Positions 20,080 through 40,130 are shown, counted from the stretch's first letter. The stretch is 64,000 nucleotides of DNA from Acidobacteriota bacterium (GCA_046731735.1 JBKPLP010000155.1:14199-78198); one strand, 5' to 3'. Numbers and translations are program-made. The notes: generated by a model from the sequence alone, not told the origin.

Positions 20080-21345
20080 TCAATGCCCCGCCGGCAGCAC
20101 CACCGCCGCTTCTCCCGACGAGCGAAGATACGCTTCGAAGTCCTGGAGCGATCGGCTGATTTGCACGGGCGGCGCGACGCGCGATCCGATGGTTTCCGCC
20201 GCTGTCTTGTACCCGTTGCCGGTAATGCAGATGACCACCGATTCGTCGGGCGCGATGGCGCCCGATTGCACCAGCTGAATGGTGCCGGCGAGCGTCGCGC
20301 CGCCGGCCGGCTCGGTGAAAATGCCTTCGGTTTCGGCGAGCAGCTCCATCGCCTGGAGAATCTGCTCGTCGGTCGACGCGACGCCGGTGCCACCGGTCGA
20401 CGTCACGGTCCGCACGACCTGGAACCCGTCCGCCGGGTTGCCGATCGCGATCGACTTCGCGATCGTCGACGGCTTGACCGGTTCGGGGTACTCGAGACCC
20501 TGCTCCAGCGCACGCACGACCGGCGCACAGCCCGCCGCCTGTGCCGCGTGGATCTTCGGCAGATCACCGGTGACCAGACCCACTTCGCGAAGCTCGCGGA
20601 ACGCTCTGAAGATTCGCGGCAGCAACGTACCACCGGCGACCGGAGACACCAGATGTTTCGGGAAACGCCACCCGAGCTGTTCGACGACTTCGAATCCGAG
20701 GGTTTTGGCCCCTTCCGCGTAGTAGCTGCGCAGATTGATGTTCGCGAAGCCCCATCCGAGCTTGTCGGCAACCTGCGTGCACAGCCGGTTGACGTCGTCG
20801 TAGTTGCCGCGAACCCCGATCACATGCGGCCGGAACACCGCCGACCCGAGCACCTTCCCGAGCTCGAGATCGTCCGGGATGAAGACGTAGCATTCCAGTC
20901 CGAGCCGCGCCGCGTGCGCCGACACGCTGTTCGCAAGATTTCCGGTGGACGCGCAGCCGAACACCGTGAAACCCAGTTCGACCGCGCGGGTTGCCGCGAT
21001 CGAGACCACTCGATCCTTGTACGAGAGCGTCGGATGATTGACCGAATCGTCCTTGATGAAGAGCTCCTGCAGGCCGAGCGTCCTGGCCAGGCGATCGGCC
21101 CGGACGAGCGGCGTACACCCCGAATGGAATCCGGTGCGCGGCTCACCGGTGATCGGCAGCAGCTCACGGAACCTCCACACGTTTCGAGGTCGCCGCTCCA
21201 CCACGTCGCGCGTGAGCGCGCCGCGTACGCCGTCGTAGTCGTAGACCACCTCGAGCGGACCCAGGCATTGATCGCAGACCCACAGCGCCTCGGCAGGAAA
21301 CTTCGCCCCGCACAGATGGCACTGGAGTCCCGTCATGAACGTCAT
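20080..21345 (-). CDS. threonine-synthase-family PLP enzyme (second ThrC paralog; candidate O-phosphohomoserine sulfhydrylase, MetM-like)
   Basis: N-terminal CxxC...CxxC ribbon and a PLP lysine context (PTLSYKDR). Sits between thrB and the sulfur-carrier/E1 gene. Confidence 0.8.
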   Translation of the reverse strand: MTFMTGLQCHLCGAKFPAEALWVCDQCLGPLEVVYDYDGVRGALTRDVVERRPRNVWRFRELLPITGEPRTGFHSGCTPLVRADRLARTLGLQELFIKDDSVNHPTLSYKDRVVSIAATRAVELGFTVFGCASTGNLANSVSAHAARLGLECYVFIPDDLELGKVLGSAVFRPHVIGVRGNYDDVNRLCTQVADKLGWGFANINLRSYYAEGAKTLGFEVVEQLGWRFPKHLVSPVAGGTLLPRIFRAFRELREVGLVTGDLPKIHAAQAAGCAPVVRALEQGLEYPEPVKPSTIAKSIAIGNPADGFQVVRTVTSTGGTGVASTDEQILQAMELLAETEGIFTEPAGGATLAGTIQLVQSGAIAPDESVVICITGNGYKTAAETIGSRVAPPVQISRSLQDFEAYLRSSGEAAVVLPAGH

Positions 21346-22289
21346 GCTTTACCTTTCCCTTTACCTTTCCGTCGCGCGACTGAGCTCGAGACCGCCCCGA
21401 GTCTGGTCGAAGCGCGATGCACCGGCACCGCCCTGATCGTGCAGGCGACCCGCTCCTGCCGGTACGCCTGTTTCAAAATCCGTTCTGCCGCGGCCGTCGG
21501 TCCGTTCGTGAACGCGGCGATGGATGGGCCGGCTCCGCTCAGGCAGAACCCGATCACATCAGGATGCCGCACCGAGAGCAGCCGGCGCAACCCCGGCACC
21601 AGCCGCTCCCGATACGGCTGGTGAACGCGATCGCGGAGCGCCTCCCGAAAATCGTCCGCATCAGCCGACTGGAGCGCGCCGAGGAGGAGTGCCAGCCGCT
21701 GCAGGTTGAACACCGCGTCGCCGACCGGCAGCCGACTCGGGATCGCCCGCCGCGAAAGCGGGGTCGGCAGCTCCAGTGCTGGTGTCGCGACGACGATGCG
21801 CCATGCGCGCGGCCACGGCCACCGGGCAACCCGGATCGTTCCGTCTGCCATGGCGCAGCAGCTCGTCACACCGCCAAACAAGGAAGGCGCGACGTTGTCC
21901 GGGTGCCCTTCGATCTTGGACGCTGCCGAGAGAATTTCGGCCCCGGGCCGCCTGCCGTCCACGAGTTCACGCAGCCGCAGGCCGGCCACGGTGGCGGCGG
22001 CACTGCTTCCCAGCCCGGAGCGCAGTGGAATCTCGCTATGCACTTCGACCTCGAGCGACGGAGCCCGCTTGACACGGCCGAGCGCGCGAAATCCGTCCGC
22101 GATCCGATTCGGCCCCCCGATGGGTCCGTCCACGAAATGCCACGTCAGCCTGCCGCGGCCGTCGTGCTCGATATTCCTGACGCGTAGCCGCAGATACAAC
22201 CCCACTGCAAGGCCCAGCGTGTCGAACCCGGGGCCGAGATTCGCGATGGATCCGGGCACGACAATCTCGCGTGGCCTCACGCGCTGCAT
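21342..22289 (-). CDS. thrB: homoserine kinase
   Basis: Trimmed to MQRVRPREIVVPGSIANLGPGFDTLG. GHMP kinase motif PLRSGLGSSAA. The start overlaps the sulfite reductase stop, and the stop overlaps the next ATG. Confidence 0.85.
   Translation of the reverse strand: MQRVRPREIVVPGSIANLGPGFDTLGLAVGLYLRLRVRNIEHDGRGRLTWHFVDGPIGGPNRIADGFRALGRVKRAPSLEVEVHSEIPLRSGLGSSAAATVAGLRLRELVDGRRPGAEILSAASKIEGHPDNVAPSLFGGVTSCCAMADGTIRVARWPWPRAWRIVVATPALELPTPLSRRAIPSRLPVGDAVFNLQRLALLLGALQSADADDFREALRDRVHQPYRERLVPGLRRLLSVRHPDVIGFCLSGAGPSIAAFTNGPTAAAERILKQAYRQERVACTIRAVPVHRASTRLGAVSSSVARRKGKGKGKA
21347..21370. repeat. CTTTACCTTTCC x2 (TACCTTT family)
   Basis: Lies inside the last 10 codons of the thrB ORF, where it is translated as KGKGKGKA, directly upstream of the next gene's ATG. 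Confidence 0.8.
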
Positions 22290-24127
22290 TCGCCGTCCAT
22301 GACCTCCGGATTGAACGCGTGATCTTCGCCTGGATCGATGAAGTCCTGCGGCCGGACGTCGTCGGCCGTCAGCTGCTCGAGATCCGCCACCGCGGCTCGC
22401 GCCCGCGCGGTGTCGACCCGGTGGAAGAACGTGCCGGCACTCTCGCCGTGTGCCCGTTCCACTTCGTACAGTTTCAATAAACGCTCGACCGCTTCCGGAA
22501 TGCGACGCGCGGGAATCTTCGCGGTCAGGCGGCCGAACTGTGCGCCGTCCTGTCCCTGTCCACCGCCAAGCATCAGAAAGTACTGCGGTACCGCGCGGTC
22601 GCCGAGCTTTCTCACGCTTCCCTGGAATCCGATGCTCGCCACGTGATGCTGCCCGCAGCCGTTCGGGCAGCCACTGATCTTGATCCGCGCGTCCGACGCA
22701 ATCCGCAGCAGTGCGGGCGATTGCTGCTCCAGGTTCTCTTCGATCAGTTTCGCGAGGCCTCGCGACTGCGTGACCGCGAGACGGCACGACTCGGCGCCGG
22801 GACAGCTGGTGACGTCGGTGATCGTGCCCGCGCCGGCGCGCGCGAGACCCGCGGCGGCAAGCCGTCGATACAGCCCAGGCACCTGCCCGCTGCGTACCCA
22901 CCGCAGCAGCAGGTTCTGATCCACTGTGGTGCGCACCAGGCCGTCCGCGTACGCTTTCGACAGCGCGGCGATCGCGCGCATCTGACCCGACGTGATGTCG
23001 CCGAGCTCCAGCGAAACGGTCACCTGGGAGTACTCGCTCTGTTTCTGAGGCCGCAGATTCGTCCGCAGCCACTCGCTGCGCTCACGGCCAGGGCCGCCAT
23101 CTCCTGTCTCCCGCAGCGGGACAATCCCCGGCCCCTTCACCGCGGTCGCACCGACGAGCGCGGCAATGTCGGCGATCGCCGGCGGCTCCGCGCGCTCCGA
23201 CTCAGGCGCCTGTTCAACCGGCGGATTCTCCGGATCGAAGGGCAGGCGTGCGGCGGCGGATGCGCGAAGATCCTCGAGTTCGCGCTGAAACTCGGCGTGC
23301 CACGCCTCCCAACCCATCTTCTTCACGAGGAATTTCAGCCGGTTCCGCTGCTTATGTTCGTAATCGCCATGCCGTTGGAAGACGCGCAGCACCGCTTCCG
23401 CCACCATCAGGATCTCGGATGCCGGCAGGAACTCGTACAGCGATGCGCCCGAACGGCACATGATCGACGTGCCGCCGGCGACCTGCACCCTGAAACCGCG
23501 AGCGCCGGAGCCATCCGGCGCCAGCATCGCGCGATACCCCAGGTCGTTGATTGAGGTTGCCGTATGGTCCTCGGACGCGCATCCCTCGAACGCGATCTTG
23601 AACTTGCGCGGAAGCGCGGAACTGAGCGGATGGCGCAGCAGATAGCGCGTCATCGCCTCCGCATACGGCGTGACGTCGAAGATCTCGTCGCGCGCGACTC
23701 CGGCGTGCGGGCACGCGGTGATATTGCGCACGGAGTTGCCGCACGCTTCACGCGTCGTCAATCCGCTGTCCGCGAGACGCCGCAGGGCGGGCTCTGCGTC
23801 GTGCAACTTCACGAAGTGAAACTGCACGTTCTGCCTGGTCGAAATGTGGCCGAACCCGCGTGAGTAGCGGTCGGCGACGTCGGCGAGCGCCTCCAGCTGC
23901 GCCGCATCCAGAATGCCTTGCGGGATCTTCACGCGCAGCATCTGCGCGTCCGCGTCCTGCCGTTGCCCGTACGTGCCTCGCAGCAAACGGAACCGACGCC
24001 ACTCCTCGGGTGATATGTCGCCGCGCTCGAACTGATCGAGTGTGCGCACGAACTCGTCGATGTCGTTGGTATCGGCAAAGGACAGCCGGGTGCGGCCGTA
24101 AGTGCGAGGATCGTCCAAGACTGCCAT
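22277..24127 (-). CDS. ferredoxin-dependent sulfite reductase (NirA/Sir family, siroheme-[4Fe-4S])
   Basis: Trimmed to MAVLDDPRTYGRT. Two nitrite/sulfite reductase repeats and cluster cysteines (TSCPGAESC, SGCPNGC). Adjacent to siroheme synthesis genes. Confidence 0.85.
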   Translation of the reverse strand: MAVLDDPRTYGRTRLSFADTNDIDEFVRTLDQFERGDISPEEWRRFRLLRGTYGQRQDADAQMLRVKIPQGILDAAQLEALADVADRYSRGFGHISTRQNVQFHFVKLHDAEPALRRLADSGLTTREACGNSVRNITACPHAGVARDEIFDVTPYAEAMTRYLLRHPLSSALPRKFKIAFEGCASEDHTATSINDLGYRAMLAPDGSGARGFRVQVAGGTSIMCRSGASLYEFLPASEILMVAEAVLRVFQRHGDYEHKQRNRLKFLVKKMGWEAWHAEFQRELEDLRASAAARLPFDPENPPVEQAPESERAEPPAIADIAALVGATAVKGPGIVPLRETGDGGPGRERSEWLRTNLRPQKQSEYSQVTVSLELGDITSGQMRAIAALSKAYADGLVRTTVDQNLLLRWVRSGQVPGLYRRLAAAGLARAGAGTITDVTSCPGAESCRLAVTQSRGLAKLIEENLEQQSPALLRIASDARIKISGCPNGCGQHHVASIGFQGSVRKLGDRAVPQYFLMLGGGQGQDGAQFGRLTAKIPARRIPEAVERLLKLYEVERAHGESAGTFFHRVDTARARAAVADLEQLTADDVRPQDFIDPGEDHAFNPEVMDGECSA

Positions 24128-24132
24128 ATGAG

Positions 24133-24909
24133 TTATATCCCGCTCAGACTTCGGCGCTCGGCTTCGGCGTGCCGCACCGCGTCCTGCGTTGAAAGAAGGC
24201 CAGCCAGCGCCGCGACCGCCCCGACGACGATGACGCCCGGCAGGCCGCTGTCCTCGACGGCGTCCCGCACGGCGAGTAAATCGAGCGTGCCGTGCCACTC
24301 CTCCGCCCCGGGGTGCGAGGCGCCGAACAGCACGGCCGCCGGAGTCTGCGCAGCCCAGCCCGATGCGCGCAGCTGGTCGACGATCGCCGCACGATTCGCG
24401 ATGCCCATGAGTACGACGATCGTCGCGCTGCCCGGCGCCAGCGACCGCAGCACCGGCCCATACGCCGACTCGGCATGGCCCGAGAGGACGATGAACGCAG
24501 ATGCCAGACCGCGATGCGTGACGGGAATCCCCGCAAGCAGCGGCGCCGCGATGGCGCTGCTGATTCCCGGAACGACTTCACAGGGGATGCCTGCGGCAGC
24601 GAGGGCCAGCGCCTCTTCGCCGCCGCGGCCGAACACGAACGGGTCGCCGCACTTCAGGCGGACGACCTTGTGGCCGCGCCGCGCCTCGCGAACCATCAGC
24701 CGGTTGATCGCGTCCTGCCGGATCGCCGGGCGCCCCGCGCGCTTACCGACGAAGAAACGCCGCGCGCGCGCGGCATGGCGCAACGCGGCAGTATCCACGA
24801 GCGCATCGTAGAGCACCAGATCCGCTTCCTCGAGACGCCGCACGGCCTTGACGGTGAGCAGCTCCGGATCGCCCGGGCCGGCGCCGATGAGGGAGACAGA
24901 ACCAGTCAT
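24133..24909 (-). CDS. cobA: uroporphyrinogen-III C-methyltransferase
   Basis: 258 aa with LIGAGPGDPELLT and GDPFVFGRGGEE motifs. Confidence 0.9.
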   Translation of the reverse strand: MTGSVSLIGAGPGDPELLTVKAVRRLEEADLVLYDALVDTAALRHAARARRFFVGKRAGRPAIRQDAINRLMVREARRGHKVVRLKCGDPFVFGRGGEEALALAAAGIPCEVVPGISSAIAAPLLAGIPVTHRGLASAFIVLSGHAESAYGPVLRSLAPGSATIVVLMGIANRAAIVDQLRASGWAAQTPAAVLFGASHPGAEEWHGTLDLLAVRDAVEDSGLPGVIVVGAVAALAGLLSTQDAVRHAEAERRSLSGI

Positions 24910-27254: not shown

Positions 27255-28579
27255 GCCGCGCTCCCCGGGGTGGCCGATGACAGCACGGGAAGCACGACTG
27301 GCGGCTCACCGTGAAAATCGCACTGGGACATTTCCTGGATCGCCCGATCGATCGCGGACGCCGGGGCCGGATCGAGGCTGACCACGAAGGGCCGGCGGCC
27401 GGCGGGAAACCCGGGCTCCTGAAGAATTGCGTCGATGTTGATGTCGTGGCGCGCGAAGACGGTCGCGAGCGCTGCGATGATTCCCGGTCGGTCCGCGACG
27501 GTGAAGCGCACGTAGAACGCGCTGGTGAAATCCGGCGACACGTCTGCCCGGTTCGCAGCCGCACGGGAGCTGAAGGGCACGGCTTCGCGCGCGATCGCGA
27601 GCAGGTCCGACATGACAGCCACGGCCGTCGGCTCTCCGCCCGCGCCAAGGCCCCCAAACGTCGTTTCGCCACCATACTGGCCGCGCAGGGTCACCAGGTT
27701 CTCGCTGCCGCGCACGCGCGCGAGCGGCGAATCGAGCGGCACGAGCGCCGGCCCGACCGCCGCGGTCAACACACGGGGATCCGCTGTCCGTTCGGCCCAC
27801 GCGACCTGCCGGATGGTGCAACCCATCTGCTGCGCGTAGACGAAGTCGACCGCGTCGATGACGTCGATGCGCCGCGACTGGATTGCACCCGCGGGCACGT
27901 GCGTCCGCAGCGCGATGTGAGCCAGAATCGCGAGCTTCGCCTGGGCGTCGAACCCTTCGATGTCCTGAGACGGATCGGCTTCGGCAAGCCCCAGCGCCTG
28001 GGCCTCCGCGAGCGCTTCCCAGAATGGCACGCGCTGCCGCTCCATGCGGCTCAGGATGTAGTTGCACGTGCCGTTGAGAATCCCGGCGACGCGGGTCAGC
28101 TTGTCCCCGGCGAGCCCGTGCTCAATCGCGCGGATCACCGGGACGCCGCCAGCGACCGCAGCCTCGAAGCGCACGTGCCGTTTCGATCGTGCCGCCTCTT
28201 CCAGTAACTCAGGACCGGCGTGAGCTATCACCTGTTTGTTGGCGGTGACGACCGACTTCCCTGCTCTCAGCGCCCGTCGGATCCACTCCTCGGCCGGCAT
28301 CCGTCCACCGATCAGCTCGACGAGGACGTCCACGTCGTCGTTCAGCACGTCGTCGATCCTGTCGGTCCAGCGGATGGAGTCGTCGAGCCAGTCGACGCGC
28401 TTGCGTTCGATACCGCGATTCAGAATCGCCACGAGCTGAAGTTCGGGCGGCGCGAGATCCTGCAGCAGCCGGGCCACGGATCGACCGACGGTACCGAACC
28501 CGGCGATCGCCACGCGGGTCCTCTGCGTAACCGGCTTCGTCGCGGCGGACGGGACTGTGGCTGCGGCGGGCGCGCTCAT
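27251..28579 (-). CDS. hom: homoserine dehydrogenase (with C-terminal ACT domain)
   Basis: GFGTVG NAD-binding motif, catalytic domain and ACT-like tail. 4-bp overlaps with both neighbours. Confidence 0.9.
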
Positions 28580-29964
28580 GCCTGCACCATAGGCGTCTGC
28601 GCGGCGTCGCGGCGGCGCGCACCTCCGAAGAACCAGTCGTGCAGCCGCGACACGGCAGGTATCGCCTGAGTCGCGTCGACGACGAACGACAGCGTCCGCT
28701 TACCGTCCGGTTGGGCAACGAGATGAACCTGCAAATCGCGCAGGGCGCCGGCCACATCCGCTGCCAGATGCCGATTCGCACTCAACCCTTCGCCCACCAC
28801 CGTCACCGTCGCAAGATCGTCGGTCACCCGGACGTCGGCAAATTTTCCAAGCGATCGGCGTAGTAGATCAAGCGTCGGCGCTGCCTGAACCGTGAACACG
28901 AGCCGGTTTCCGCACAGATCAGCGAGGACGGCCTCGACGTCCGCGAGTTCGAGCTCACCAAACACCCGCGATACGAACTCGTCGACGTCGGCGCGTTCGT
29001 GGGCGAGGACTTCGAACAGGATCGCGCCGTCGCGGCAGGCGAGACCGGCCACCGGCCGCGCGTCCTCCGCGGTTCGCGCGGCGCTGACGACGGTTCCGGA
29101 CACGTGCGGCCGTTGCGAGTTGCGGACGACAACGGGAATCGCGCAATCGACGGCTGGCGCGATCGTACCGGGGTGCAGCACCTTCGCGCCAAACGACGCG
29201 AGGTCGTGTGCTTCACCGTACGAAAGATGCGGTACGAGACGCGCATGGGGTACCAGGCGCGGGTCGGCGGTCATGATGCCGTCGACGTCGGTCCAGATCT
29301 GAATCTCGTCCGCGCCGAGGCAGGCACCGAACACCGCGGCGGAGCAGTCCGACCCGCCGCGCCCGAGCGTCGTCGTCACGCCCTTCGCATCGGATCCGAT
29401 GAAGCCGCCGAGGACCACGATATCGCCGCGATCGAGCTCGGGGCGCACGAGACGGACACAGGCTTCGCGTGTCGCGATGAGATCGGGAGCGGCGCCGCCG
29501 TGGTGGCTGTTCGTGCGCAGGACGTCCCGGGCATCGAGCCACGTGGCCGGCACGCCGCCATCGCGCAGCACTGCCGCCAGCAGCCGGCTGCTCCAGAGCT
29601 CTCCCGCTGCCGCCACCTCATCGACCGAGCGCGCGGACAGGCGCCCCGGCGCCGCTTCGAGGGTCGCGGCGACCTGCGCGGCAATCGCATAGAACTCGTG
29701 CTGGAGTGCCACCCGTGCCGTGCGTTCGCGAATCATCTCGGCCGCCGCGAGGTGCCGGCGCAACAGCAGGTCGAGGTTGCGCGGCGGCGGATTCCCCGGA
29801 ATCGTCGCGCCCGCAGCCGCCACGTTCAGCAGCGCGTCGGTCACACCGGCGAGCGCCGACACCACCACTAGGCGCGACCGTCGTTCGGCCGCGATGATCC
29901 CGGCCACCCGCCGAATCGATTCCACCTCGCCGACTGAGGTGCCGCCGAATTTCAGGACTACCAC
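28576..29964 (-). CDS. ask: aspartate kinase
   Basis: GTG start giving MVVLKFGGTSV, with RBS GAGGAG upstream. Amino-acid kinase domain plus ACT domains. Confidence 0.9.
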   Translation of the reverse strand: MVVLKFGGTSVGEVESIRRVAGIIAAERRSRLVVVSALAGVTDALLNVAAAGATIPGNPPPRNLDLLLRRHLAAAEMIRERTARVALQHEFYAIAAQVAATLEAAPGRLSARSVDEVAAAGELWSSRLLAAVLRDGGVPATWLDARDVLRTNSHHGGAAPDLIATREACVRLVRPELDRGDIVVLGGFIGSDAKGVTTTLGRGGSDCSAAVFGACLGADEIQIWTDVDGIMTADPRLVPHARLVPHLSYGEAHDLASFGAKVLHPGTIAPAVDCAIPVVVRNSQRPHVSGTVVSAARTAEDARPVAGLACRDGAILFEVLAHERADVDEFVSRVFGELELADVEAVLADLCGNRLVFTVQAAPTLDLLRRSLGKFADVRVTDDLATVTVVGEGLSANRHLAADVAGALRDLQVHLVAQPDGKRTLSFVVDATQAIPAVSRLHDWFFGGARRRDAAQTPMVQA

Positions 29965-30025
29965 ACGATCTCTCCTCGTCTTACGCCTGACGCCGCGGCG
30001 ACCCTAAAAGGGTCGCCCTACACTC

Positions 30026-30058
30026 AAAAAAAAACCCGCCGGCTGAGAGCCGGCGGGT
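30026..30058 (-). terminator. intrinsic terminator inside the ask 5' leader (attenuator)
   Basis: Minus strand reads ACCCGCCGGC-tctca-GCCGGCGGGT followed by T9, 61 nt upstream of the ask GTG. Confidence 0.75.
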
Positions 30059-30092
30059 TGGGGTGCGCAATGCCTTTAATTGGGCTGTTTCG

Positions 30093-30194
30093 TCAGGAAG
30101 CGCGTGCGCAAAGACCGCCGGCGTGGCGAATTCGAATGGTTCGAATTCGCATACACGTGCAACACATCGCCGTAGCCTTGGACTGGAACCGCAT
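30093..30194 (-). CDS. candidate leader ORF (33 aa, or 24 aa from an internal ATG)
   Basis: MRFQSKATAMCCTCMRIRTIRIRHAGGLCARAS. It contains the segment GCCGGCGGT, which mimics the terminator 3' arm. Weak translation signals. Confidence 0.3.
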   Translation of the reverse strand: MRFQSKATAMCCTCMRIRTIRIRHAGGLCARAS

Positions 30195-30209
30195 CGCTTC
30201 TGGCTGTCG

Positions 30210-30239
30210 AGTATAGGCGGCACCCCTGGACAGCGTCAA
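30210..30239 (-). promoter_or_regulatory. candidate sigma-70 promoter of the ask-hom-thrC leader (TTGACG-N18-TATACT)
   Basis: Minus strand reads cTTGACGctgtccaggggtgccgccTATACTcgacagcc. Confidence 0.45.
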
Positions 30240-30327
30240 GCCCAGGCCGTCATCCCATTAACTGATCTTATGAAGTTGAAAACATTATAAATTTGACTTC
30301 ACGACGCCCGGCCGTCACCATAACCAT

Positions 30328-30417
30328 ATGCGTGGACCGGTCATTCCGGGGATCGTCGTTGTCGGGGTCATCGGCCGTCTTACCGGCCGAATCCTGGCCC
30401 GATGTCCACACGAGTGA
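30328..30417 (+). CDS. candidate branched-chain amino acid leader peptide (29 aa)
   Basis: MRGPVIPGIVVVGVIGRLTGRILARCPHE: 5 Val, 4 Ile and 2 Leu, with the core IVVVGVI. The stop codon is embedded in the antiterminator segment. Confidence 0.6.
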   Translation: MRGPVIPGIVVVGVIGRLTGRILARCPHE

Positions 30418-30442
30418 CGGCGCAAGAAATCAACAGGCAGAC

Positions 30443-30480
30443 AGGCCGTCACTCGAAACCGGGCGACGGCCTTTTTGTTT
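30443..30480 (+). terminator. intrinsic terminator / attenuator upstream of pheA-ilv genes
   Basis: AGGCCGTC-(14-nt loop)-GACGGCCT followed by TTTTTGTTT. Confidence 0.65.
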
Positions 30481-30489
30481 CTGGAGCTA

Positions 30490-30595
30490 TAGGGCGGCAC
30501 GTCCGCCGCCCTAAGGCGGGGCATAAAGCCCCGCCTTATGAGAGCCGGTGTTGTAGGCCGGGGCGTTAGTTGTAGGCCGGGGCTTTAGCCCCGGC
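30490..30595. repeat. cluster of GC-rich REP-like hairpins
   Basis: Three hairpins: TAGGGCGGC-acgtcc-GCCGCCCTA, AAGGCGGGGC-ataaa-GCCCCGCCTT, and a direct repeat GTTGTAGGCCGGGGC x2 with GCCGGGGC-ttta-GCCCCGGC. The related copy is at 57688-57752. Confidence 0.8.
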
Positions 30596-38062: not shown

Positions 38063-38427
38063 TTCCGGGCGAGCTGTTCCTGCGCGACGAGCCCGTCGAA
38101 CTGAATGCCGGACGCGAGCCGATCCGCATCCGCGTCGACAACGCCGGCGATCGGCCGATCCAGATCGGATCGCACACGCACTTTTTCGAAGTCAACAAAC
38201 ATCTTCGGTTCGATCGTGGTCGCGCGTACGGCTGTCATCTGAACATCCCGGCCGGGACCGCGCTTCGGTTCGAACCCGGCGAAGGACGGGAGATCGATCT
38301 CGTGCCGTTTGGCGGGACGCGCCGCGTGTTCGGCATGAGCGGACTGGTCAATGGCTCGCTCGACGATCAGCGCGATCAGGCAGTTAGCCGTGCGAGCGAG
38401 CGCGGCTTCACCGGGGATCGACGGTGA
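38059..38427 (+). CDS. ureB: urease subunit beta
   Basis: MIPGELF...[16 protein letters not shown]. Confidence 0.93.
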
Positions 38428-40130
38428 AGATTCCGCGGCGGACGTACGTCGATCTTTACGGCCCCACCACCGGAGATCGCGTTCGCCTCGGGGACACGTC
38501 TCTCGTGCTCGAGATCGACCGCGACCATGCGCGGTATGGTGACGAGGTCGTGTTCGGTGGCGGCAAGGTCATCCGCGATGGACAAGGGCAATCCCAGGCA
38601 ACCCGCGCGGCGGGCGCGCCGGACCTCGTGATCACGAACGCCATCGTCGTGGATCACTGGGGCGTCGTAAAGGCCGACGTGGGCGTCCGCGACGGCCGCA
38701 TCAGTGCGATCGGAAAGGCCGGCAATCCCGACATTCAGGACGGGGTCACGCCCGGTCTCGAGATCGGTCCGTCGACTGAAATCCTCGCGGGCGAGCATCG
38801 AATCCTGACCGCGGGCGGAATCGATTCCCACATCCACTTCATCAGCCCGCAGCAGGCGTGGGAAGCGCTCTACAGCGGCATCACCACCATGATCGGCGGC
38901 GGCACCGGGCCGGCGGAAGGCACGCGGGCGACGACCTGCACGCCCGGTGAGTGGAACATTCGACGGATGCTGGAAGCAGCCGAAGGACTGCCGCTGAATT
39001 TCGGGTTCCTGGGAAAAGGCAACGCGTCCCTGCCGGACCCGCTGGTCGAGCAGATCGTCGCCGGAGCGATTGGCCTGAAGCTGCACGAAGATTGGGGCAC
39101 GACGCCGCAGGCAATCGACACCGCGCTCGGCGTCGCGGACGAGTACGACGTGCAGGTCGCGATTCATACCGACACGCTGAACGAATCAGGATTCGTCGAG
39201 GACACGCTCGCCGCCTTCAAGGGCCGGACGATTCACACCTACCACAGCGAAGGTGCCGGCGGCGGGCACGCCCCCGACATCATGAAGGTCTGCGGTCAGC
39301 CAAACGTGCTGCCGTCGAGCACGAACCCGACGATGCCGTACACGGTGAACACGCTCGACGAGCACCTGGACATGCTGATGGTCTGCCATCACCTCAACCC
39401 GCAGGTACCCGAAGACGTCGCGTTCGCCGAGTCGCGAATACGGCCGGAGACGATGGCCGCGGAGGACGTCCTGCACGATCTCGGCGCGATCAGCATGATG
39501 TCATCCGACTCGCAGGCGATGGGCCGCGTCGGCGAAGTCATCACACGCACGTGGCAGACGGCGCACGTGATGAAAGAGACGCGAGGCGCGCTCCGCGGCG
39601 ATCGGGCGGAGAACGACAACCTGCGCATACGCCGTTACGTCGCGAAGTACACGATCAATCCCGCACGCACGCACGGGATCGCCGATTACGTCGGGTCGAT
39701 CGAGGTCGGCAAGTGGGCTGACCTCGTGTTATGGTCGCCGGCCTTTTTCGGCGTCAAACCCGACCTCATCGTCAAGGGCGGGATGATCGTCGCGGCACTG
39801 ATGGGAGACCCCAACGCGTCCATCCCGACGCCTGAGCCGGTGCGGTATCGGCCGATGTTCGGCGCGCTGGGCAAAGCGCCCGACGGGCTCGCGGCGACGT
39901 TCGTCTCGCGCGCCGCGCTCGACTCGAGGTCGCTGCCGGCATCGCTCCGGCGGACCCTGCTGCCGGTGCGGAACACGCGGACGCTCGGCAAACGGGATAT
40001 GGCCATGAACGATGCGCTGCCGTCGATCGAGATCGATGCGGAGCGCTATACCGTCACCATCGATGGAGAGAGAATAGAGCCGAAGGCCGCGGCGCGGCTG
40101 CCGCTGGCACAGCGGTATTTTTTGTTCTGA
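38424..40130 (+). CDS. ureC: urease subunit alpha
   Basis: 568 aa with [16 protein letters not shown] and MVCHHL motifs. Confidence 0.95.

Follow-up and report, generated by a model that had tools for sequence, protein, structure and literature searches.

A conserved leader RNA of the ask-hom-thrC operon in an acidobacterium as a probable ribosome-mediated transcription attenuator

The subject of this analysis is the leader of the ask-hom-thrC operon of a soil acidobacterium, on the minus strand of a 64,000-nucleotide (nt) stretch of Acidobacteriota DNA (GCA_046731735.1 JBKPLP010000155.1:14199-78198), called the window here and numbered from its first letter. The first gene controlled, ask (28576..29964), encodes a 462-residue aspartate kinase (TIGR00657, 334 bits), starts with GTG and has a GAGGAG ribosome-binding site (RBS) at 29977-29972. 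It is followed by hom (homoserine dehydrogenase, 28579-27251) and thrC (threonine synthase, 27254-25929), and the stop and start codons of successive genes overlap. The window has a G+C content of 65.5%. Its UvrB protein is 89-92% identical to proteins from metagenome-assembled genomes named Acidobacteriota or Vicinamibacterales, which points to a Vicinamibacterales-like acidobacterium as the host. About 460 nt of the intergenic region upstream of ask is conserved above the level of the Ask protein. An earlier reading made from the DNA letters alone (the sequence-only reading) had listed here a promoter, a short upstream open reading frame (ORF), a palindrome, a terminator and a hairpin before the ask RBS, and all of them are present on the minus strand.

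The promoter (30210..30239) consists of a -35 box TTGACG (30239-30234), an 18-nt spacer and a -10 box TATACT (30215-30210), with 10 of 12 positions matching. TTGACG-N18-TATACT is the sole sigma-70-like match between 29900 and 30700, where 0.2 are expected, and CTTGAC...TATACTC is unchanged in nine orthologous loci. The -10 box ends 15 nt before the ATG of the leader ORF in the window and 6-15 nt before it across the 13 leaders compared, and no Shine-Dalgarno sequence was found ahead of this ATG in those leaders. Transcription usually starts ~7 nt past the -10 box; with a start site assumed at that distance, the mRNA would be leaderless or nearly so. The leader ORF (30093..30194) begins at ATG and comprises 33 codons, MRFQSKATAMCCTCMRIRTIRIRHAGGLCARAS, followed by TGA (30095-30093). 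Codons 15-23 coincide with a perfect palindrome (hairpin H2, 30126..30150). The intrinsic terminator lies beyond the ORF (30026..30059), and the end of its T-run is 61 nt from the ask GTG.

Twelve orthologous leaders from metagenomes were compared with the window, giving a set of 13 whose Ask proteins span 92% to 47% identity. Leaders L161-L169 were obtained by exact look-ups of Ask homologues (Ask identity 92-58%), L105 and L117 by a motif scan of fetched loci (47-48%), and L170 and L171 via ilvD homologues. The exact Ask protein of the window was encoded by no contig in an exact look-up. Ask pattern scans of genome and metagenome contigs gave, among the matches listed, only proteins of 33-48% identity, mostly an asd-linked Ask paralogue of the same order; L105 and L117 came from this set. 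The 12 orthologous loci keep the promoter, the ORF, palindrome H2, the outer antiterminator strand C1 (GCCGGCGG), the inner antiterminator helix C2:D and the terminator. All 13 leaders were aligned with a covariance model, R1, built from H2, C2:D and the terminator only, with the helix between C1 and the terminator 5' arm (C1:T5') left out. The spacing of the elements is constrained: 0-3 nt separate H2 from C1, the ORF stop lies 24-36 nt before the terminator, and the distance from the end of C1 to the stop is 18 nt in 9 of the 13. The window RNA folds better than 200 of 200 dinucleotide shuffles (z = -3.4). This result and the conservation in 12 loci show that the leader features are not due to chance.

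The terminator has a 12-pair stem (5' arm 30059-30048, loop 30047-30045, 3' arm 30044-30033) and a T-run that extends to 30026. Its calculated folding free energy (ΔG) in the window is -24.2 kcal/mol. The terminator helix is 98% paired in the 13 leaders, and the terminator state as a whole is 94.0% paired in the R1 alignment. The competing antiterminator has two helices whose 5' strands lie in the last part of the ORF. C1 (30115..30122, codons 25-27) has the same sequence as the 8 nt that open the terminator 3' arm, and it pairs with 30056-30049. C2 (UGCGCA, 30105..30110, codons 29-30) pairs with D (UGCGCA, 30064..30069), a partner identified by truncated folds, covariation and RNAalifold. The antiterminator has a calculated ΔG of -28.2 kcal/mol in the window.

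Both structures covary. The C1:T5' helix, which had no part in building R1, is 99% paired and changes from G-C to U-A twice and from C-G to U-A once, and the closing pair of C2:D is found as A-U, G·U or G-C. Two pairs in C1:T5', four in C2:D and eight in the whole antiterminator state have changed on both sides. That state is 94.2% paired, none of 500 shuffles matches the observed values, and slid controls reach 25-41%. To mimic RNA whose terminator 3' arm has yet to be transcribed, leaders were truncated directly after the 5' arm, and 11 of the 11 tested fold to the same two-helix antiterminator. H2, C2:D and the terminator are also predicted by RNAalifold from a MAFFT alignment made independently. 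The sequence-only reading had proposed that GCCGGCGGT could serve as an antiterminator strand by pairing with the terminator 5' arm, and the pairing frequency, the compensatory changes and the truncated folds all bear this out. Its broader claim, that a terminator in this position implies conditional read-through, likewise finds support in the comparison of the 13 leaders.

Several other structures do not belong to the conserved core. In the full-length minimum-free-energy fold, helices AAGGCU:GGUCUU and CGGCG:CGCCG have 5' strands that vary and 3' strands that are fixed, with no compensation. The small hairpin AUGUG-UUG-CACGU upstream of H2 is deleted in L166 and L168 and absent from L105 and L117. 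An extension of the H2 stem that overlaps C1 by 2 nt appears in some folds and is not conserved. The hairpin before the ask RBS (30017-29997, minus strand), which had been listed among the leader structures, is present in the window but not conserved in the relatives, and a regulatory role for it is unsupported.

The palindrome at 30150-30126 is confirmed as an 11-bp perfect inverted repeat with a 3-nt loop, GCGAATTCGAA-cca-TTCGAATTCGC (arms also written GCGAAUUCGAA and UUCGAAUUCGC). It encodes R-I-R-T-I-R-I-R with the rare codons CGA and AUU; ATT makes up 20% of the Ile codons and CGA 7% of the Arg codons in the window's genes. The H2 hairpin has a ΔG of -13.3 kcal/mol and is 92% paired across the 13 leaders. 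Since GCGAATTCGC equals its reverse complement, the window alone does not tell an inverted repeat from a direct one. The arms of L171, GCGGAUUCGC and GCGAAUCCGU, settle the question in favor of pairing, since they differ exactly as pairing demands (pair 6-24 changes from A-U to G-C). Pair 12-18 is A-U in four leaders, C-G in seven and U·G in one, and it couples the synonymous third base of an Arg codon with an Ile/Met switch. The other stem changes are mostly to G·U, with two in L169 and one each in L168 (Arg to Cys), L166 and L171; internal mismatches occur in L170 (two) and L165. The pattern of changes points to selection on RNA pairing and counts against a DNA operator. Pairing alone cannot account for the H2 sequence: every leader uses AUU together with CGA or CGG, though pairing would be just as good with CGG-AUC-CG.

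An ORF of 30-33 codons is present in all 13 leaders. Its ATG is invariant, its indels are in frame (3, 6 or 9 nt), and its stop position is constant while the stop codon itself is TGA, TAG or TAA. The encoded peptides include MRFQSKATAMCCTCMRIRTIRIRHAGGLCARAS in the window, MQFRTTTTATCCMCMRIRPIRIRHAGGLCAHAS in L163, MPKRTTATRQTTTRIRIQRIRLSGGPCVPIP in L117, MFATITMTGTMCMRIRMTRMLHAGGRLANAV in L170 and MPSATLMTATSMCTRIRRTRIREAGGSCARSH in L171, and MPKRTTATRQTTTRIRIQRIR..., MQFRTTTTAT... and MFATITMTGTMCMRIRMTRM... are found among the relatives. Codon use in the 13 leaders was compared with the 6,856 codons of the window's own genes. Met codons are enriched 4.6-fold, Thr codons 2.3-fold and Ile codons 1.8-fold, and all but two of these codons fall within codons 2-22, upstream of C1. 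They occupy codons 8, 10, 13, 15, 17, 19, 20 and 22 in the window. The window itself shows this signal weakly, whereas L117, L163, L170 and L171 show it strongly. The sequence-only reading had noted that the ORF holds Lys, Thr, Met and Ile codons, all for end products of the aspartate family. Thr, Ile and Met survive the comparison as a signal; Lys, at 0.4 times the background, does not.

The leader matches no known RNA family. Rfam 15 gave no match in the leader when the whole window was searched at the gathering score, and a search of 29900-30400 at E <= 10 returned sub-threshold small RNA (sRNA) models only (sroD, anti-hemB, atoC and others), driven by the terminator hairpin. Thr_leader (RF00506) and the Lysine, SAM and T-box families were absent even at E <= 10. 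The earlier suggestions for the leader had been a leader peptide, an RNA that binds a protein or ligand, and a DNA operator at the palindrome. The in-frame ORF with its variable stop codon and the Thr/Ile/Met enrichment upstream of C1 favor the leader peptide, the riboswitch and T-box versions have no Rfam match, and the operator is weakened by the H2 changes. The leader is thus likely to be a ribosome-mediated transcription attenuator of the thr-operon type.

In such an attenuator, transcription would begin only slightly upstream of the ATG (30194), and translation of the 33 codons would take place on a leaderless or nearly leaderless mRNA. Scarcity of charged Thr-, Ile- or Met-transfer RNA (tRNA) would stall the ribosome within codons 5-22. 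A ribosome covers about 13-15 nt of mRNA 3' of its P site, so the leading edge of a ribosome stalled in these codons would lie upstream of C1, leaving C1 and C2 free. These two strands would capture 30056-30049 and 30069-30064 once the terminator 5' arm emerges and before the 3' arm exists. With the antiterminator (about -28 kcal/mol) formed, RNA polymerase would continue into ask-hom-thrC. When the amino acids are plentiful, the ribosome would run through codons 25-33 to the TGA, unwinding or covering first C1 and then C2. A ribosome at the TGA would cover C2 and hinder the long-range helix, the terminator (-24 kcal/mol and T9) would form, and transcription would stop at ~30026. H2, with its two invariant Ile codons, most likely slows or synchronizes the ribosome and the polymerase and would lie outside the switch itself. 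The model predicts that changing C1 from GCCGGCGG to GCGCCCGG would give constitutive termination.

Several observations weigh against this mechanism. The start site and the translation of an ORF that has no Shine-Dalgarno sequence are assumptions, and the open frame by itself is weak evidence, given that this GC-rich sequence has hardly any stops in the other two frames either. The window holds three Thr, three Ile and two internal Met codons, scattered without a run, as the sequence-only reading had remarked. Cys (11-fold) and Arg (1.9-fold) codons are enriched as well, neither being a product of the aspartate-family pathway, and the kinship of the 13 sequences inflates the binomial p-values of all such enrichments. 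The distance to the stop codon is 18 nt from C1 and 9 nt from C2, and a terminating ribosome would cover C2 and probably not C1. The 'off' state would therefore hang on timing or steric hindrance and not, as for trpL, on the strand being masked directly. For a leader that is not translated the expected outcome is read-through, in contrast to the superattenuation of the trp type. H2 has no nucleotides in common with either the antiterminator or the terminator, and simple attenuation does not account for its presence.

This last point speaks for a rival in which a trans-acting RNA-binding protein or small ligand binds the two GCGAAUUCGC copies of H2, 2 nt from C1, and picks the structure, with the ORF being secondary. 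The H2 stem is conserved far beyond the need for pairing, as the exclusive use of CGA/CGG-AUU over the common CGG-AUC-CG in 13 of 13 leaders illustrates. The H2 loop, however, varies in sequence and length (CCA, CGA, CCGAU, AUGAC and AUCCA) and offers no conserved single-stranded element. Rfam yields no match to a protein-binding or riboswitch family, and elsewhere in the window the motif is no more frequent than chance predicts. H2 does not overlap C1, so a bound factor would have to act by steric hindrance. In L137, the leader of the asd-ask paralogue has at the equivalent position of its ORF a hairpin of 8 bp, ACCAUGCG-aa-CGCAUGGU, that is unrelated to H2, which argues for a structural role rather than a sequence-specific one. 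We regard a bound regulator as unlikely. The same palindrome could instead be read at the DNA level, as an operator for a dimeric repressor or activator that forms a roadblock ~45-70 bp past the transcription start, the terminator being constitutive or leaky. A perfect 25-bp palindrome with two self-complementary 10-mers and a 15-bp spacing fixed in all relatives has the appearance of such a site, and the Watson-Crick covariation (A-T to C-G or G-C) suits a DNA inverted repeat equally well. The G·U-only pairs (two in L169, one each in L168, L166 and L171) do not, because they make the DNA half-sites unequal. With one mismatch allowed, GCGAATTCGC has 9 matches in the 64-kb window against 10 expected, and an operator leaves the covarying antiterminator and the conserved ORF around the palindrome unexplained. 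Regulation by a DNA-bound protein is extremely unlikely on these grounds.

A third possibility retains the ribosome and changes what stops it. The nascent (M)RIRxxRIR would be an Arg-X-Arg arrest peptide, and a stall brought about by a metabolite or by general translation stress, not by tRNA charging, would free the antiterminator. In erm leader peptides, peptide bonds form slowly at Arg/Lys-X-Arg/Lys motifs. Conservation of the encoded peptide is highest at R-I-R-x-x-R-I-R in 11 of 13 leaders, and in the structural model a stall anywhere before C1 gives read-through. Against this reading, the nucleotides in question also form H2, and pairing is kept while the peptide alters (Arg to Cys via G·U in L168, Arg to His in L165). 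The synonymous sites of these codons are frozen, which indicates a constraint on nucleotides rather than on the peptide. The Thr/Ile/Met enrichment outside the core would also have no explanation. Arrest by the nascent peptide is accordingly judged very unlikely.

Within the attenuator that senses tRNA charging, our best guess is that H2 is a pause or synchronization hairpin that carries slowly decoded regulatory Ile codons. A more elaborate role would make the invariant double GCGAAUUCGC hairpin, which encodes Arg-Ile-Arg twice, a second sensor that serves either as the docking site of an RNA-binding regulator or as the template of an Arg-X-Arg arrest peptide. A second sensor is unlikely; if H2 were one, tRNA charging and a further signal would be combined in the ask-hom-thrC attenuator, and Vicinamibacterales would carry a composite type of attenuator not yet described.

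The closest counterpart of the leader is the thr attenuator of Escherichia coli. Both control genes for aspartate kinase, homoserine dehydrogenase and threonine synthesis, and in both a short Thr/Ile ORF is joined with an intrinsic terminator and an antiterminator that excludes it, the 5' strand of the antiterminator being placed within the end of the ORF or beyond it. The E. coli attenuator responds to more than one amino acid, as is proposed for the window. Some of the relatives' peptides resemble thrL, for example ...TTATRQTTTRIRIQRIR and MPKRTTATRQTTTRIRIQRIR. The window leader differs in that it fails the RF00506 model, and no sign of shared ancestry was found in this comparison. Its ORF lacks a Shine-Dalgarno sequence and is probably leaderless or nearly so, its regulatory codons are scattered, and Met is enriched along with unexplained Cys. 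It has a conserved extra hairpin inside the ORF, its antiterminator consists of two helices with the outer strand ending 18 nt before the stop, and its host is an acidobacterium.

The E. coli leu leader uses rare CUA codons. The classical leader-peptide attenuators known from Proteobacteria and Actinobacteria, such as those of trp, his, leu and ilv (PMC1262725, PMC1183508), share with the model proposed for the window the selection of antiterminator or terminator by ribosome position and the placing of rare codons at regulatory positions, AUU (20% of Ile codons) being the case in the window. H2 may act like the 1:2 pause hairpin of trp. It differs in sharing no bases with the antiterminator, so that there is no competition between 1:2 and 2:3 pairings and an untranslated leader would read through. 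The mycobacterial leaderless polycysteine short ORFs (bioRxiv 10.1101/834739; PMC4633059) are a precedent for a leaderless ORF as an amino-acid-responsive attenuator, and the Cys leader of the window (25908-25810, described below) closely resembles them. No terminator hairpin was found in the mycobacterial cys leaders (PMC1262725), whereas each window leader ORF has a canonical intrinsic terminator and a covarying antiterminator.

Acidobacteria are among the most abundant soil bacteria. A full-text literature search for leader-peptide transcription attenuation in Acidobacteria returned a 2010 survey as its sole match. In that survey, Naville and Gautheret reported leader-peptide systems shown only in Proteobacteria, Actinobacteria and their own Firmicute case, and hardly any function had been assigned to the attenuators predicted in Acidobacteria (PMC2965389). 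For the threonine genes of Actinobacteria, a survey of 2005 had found no regulatory RNA structure upstream (PMC1262725). The leader most likely represents a mechanism known in kind, found here in a little-studied phylum and with an unusual conserved hairpin inside the leader ORF. It leaves the general understanding of attenuation unchanged. Its value lies in giving a locus in a neglected phylum whose regulation is almost unstudied and a defined test case for the effect of a leaderless ORF and an in-ORF hairpin on attenuation. The R1 covariance model can be used to annotate such leaders in metagenomes, and an attenuator explains short 'hypothetical' ORFs reported by gene finders.

The gene order around the leader is kept among relatives, with ilvD and pheA in one direction and ask-hom-thrC-(sirohaem genes) in the opposite direction. 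In L170 (1925-2642) and L171 (2135-2645), hom-thrC stands directly behind the same RIR-type leader with no ask, and the divergent operon reads pheA-ilvD-ilvB-ilvN-ilvC. The divergent operon of the window, pheA-ilvD-ilvB, is preceded on the plus strand by a leaderless-looking candidate Ile/Val leader ORF, MRGPVIPGIVVVGVIGRLTGRILARCPHE (30328-30417), and a terminator (30444-30471, T-run to 30480). An 11-nt segment over the stop codon of this ORF (30411-30421) is 100% complementary to the terminator 5' arm (30445-30455), which gives this candidate attenuator a classical geometry. L163 and L164 have an in-frame 9-nt deletion in the Ile/Val leader.

A candidate Cys leader ORF, MLYGNPCACNCCCCCCMCSIRGFPAFGPGVMF, with nine Cys codons (25908-25810, minus strand), starts 5 nt past a TATAAA box downstream of thrC. 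Its terminator, GCCCGGGAGG-ccagaca-CCTCCCGGGC and a T-run (25782-25745, minus strand), stands ahead of genes resembling sirohaem synthase and sulfite/nitrite reductase. The Cys leader is kept in six relatives (within L163-L169), and it gives weak R1 matches. Three candidate leader-peptide attenuators, for Ile/Val, Thr/Ile/Met and Cys, thus lie within 5 kb, all leaderless or nearly so, and the Vicinamibacterales lineage appears to use classical ribosome-sensed attenuation widely and repeatedly.

Within 21342-24298 on the minus strand, a thrB (homoserine kinase) match covers residues 270-552 of an ORF at 21342-23072. It lies downstream of a NirA/sulfite-reductase-like gene. Since ask-hom-thrC and the Cys leader are also on this strand, the Thr and sulfur-assimilation genes may share transcripts. 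Such sharing could relate to the Cys codons of the ask leader.

An AT-rich block, GTGAAGTCAAATTTATAATGTTTTCAACTTCATAAG (30265-30300), sits between the two promoters that diverge here and has hardly changed in the four closest relatives. The probable -35 box for the ilv leader, TTGACT, falls within it, and a similar block, GCGTCAAATTTATGCAAG, is found upstream of the asd-ask leader in L137. The block may be an UP element or a site for a shared regulator.

Other Vicinamibacterales and Acidobacteriota loci carry a second Ask paralogue behind asd, with weak R1 matches upstream of asd or ask. These occur at 1760-1935 in L012, 1250-1410 in L137 and 2300-2460 in L115, and in many others ~1.1 kb upstream of ask. 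Each of these paralogue leaders has a peptide of its own with a terminator behind it: MLVRTITGAKTATMRTHGCRGGVCALDI in L137, the Lys/Arg-rich MRTSSDMRKRAKRSKKIRTTAVGVCVLAR in L012 and MFIAVLQTIARKRAKRAGRPVVWRRS in L115.

GC-rich hairpin repeats at 30490-30595 of the window, between the ilv-leader terminator and the pheA start, vary among relatives, and L156 has four tandem cgtagcgtccggcttgagccggacc hairpin units (60-180) just upstream of ask. Both sets of repeats may be elements like the repetitive extragenic palindromic (REP) sequences. The Rfam search of the window also gave a match to 5_ureB_sRNA (92.6 bits, 38570-38865, minus strand) that is antisense to a 568-amino-acid ORF on the plus strand (38424-40130), and this match may reflect conservation of urease coding sequence rather than a real sRNA.

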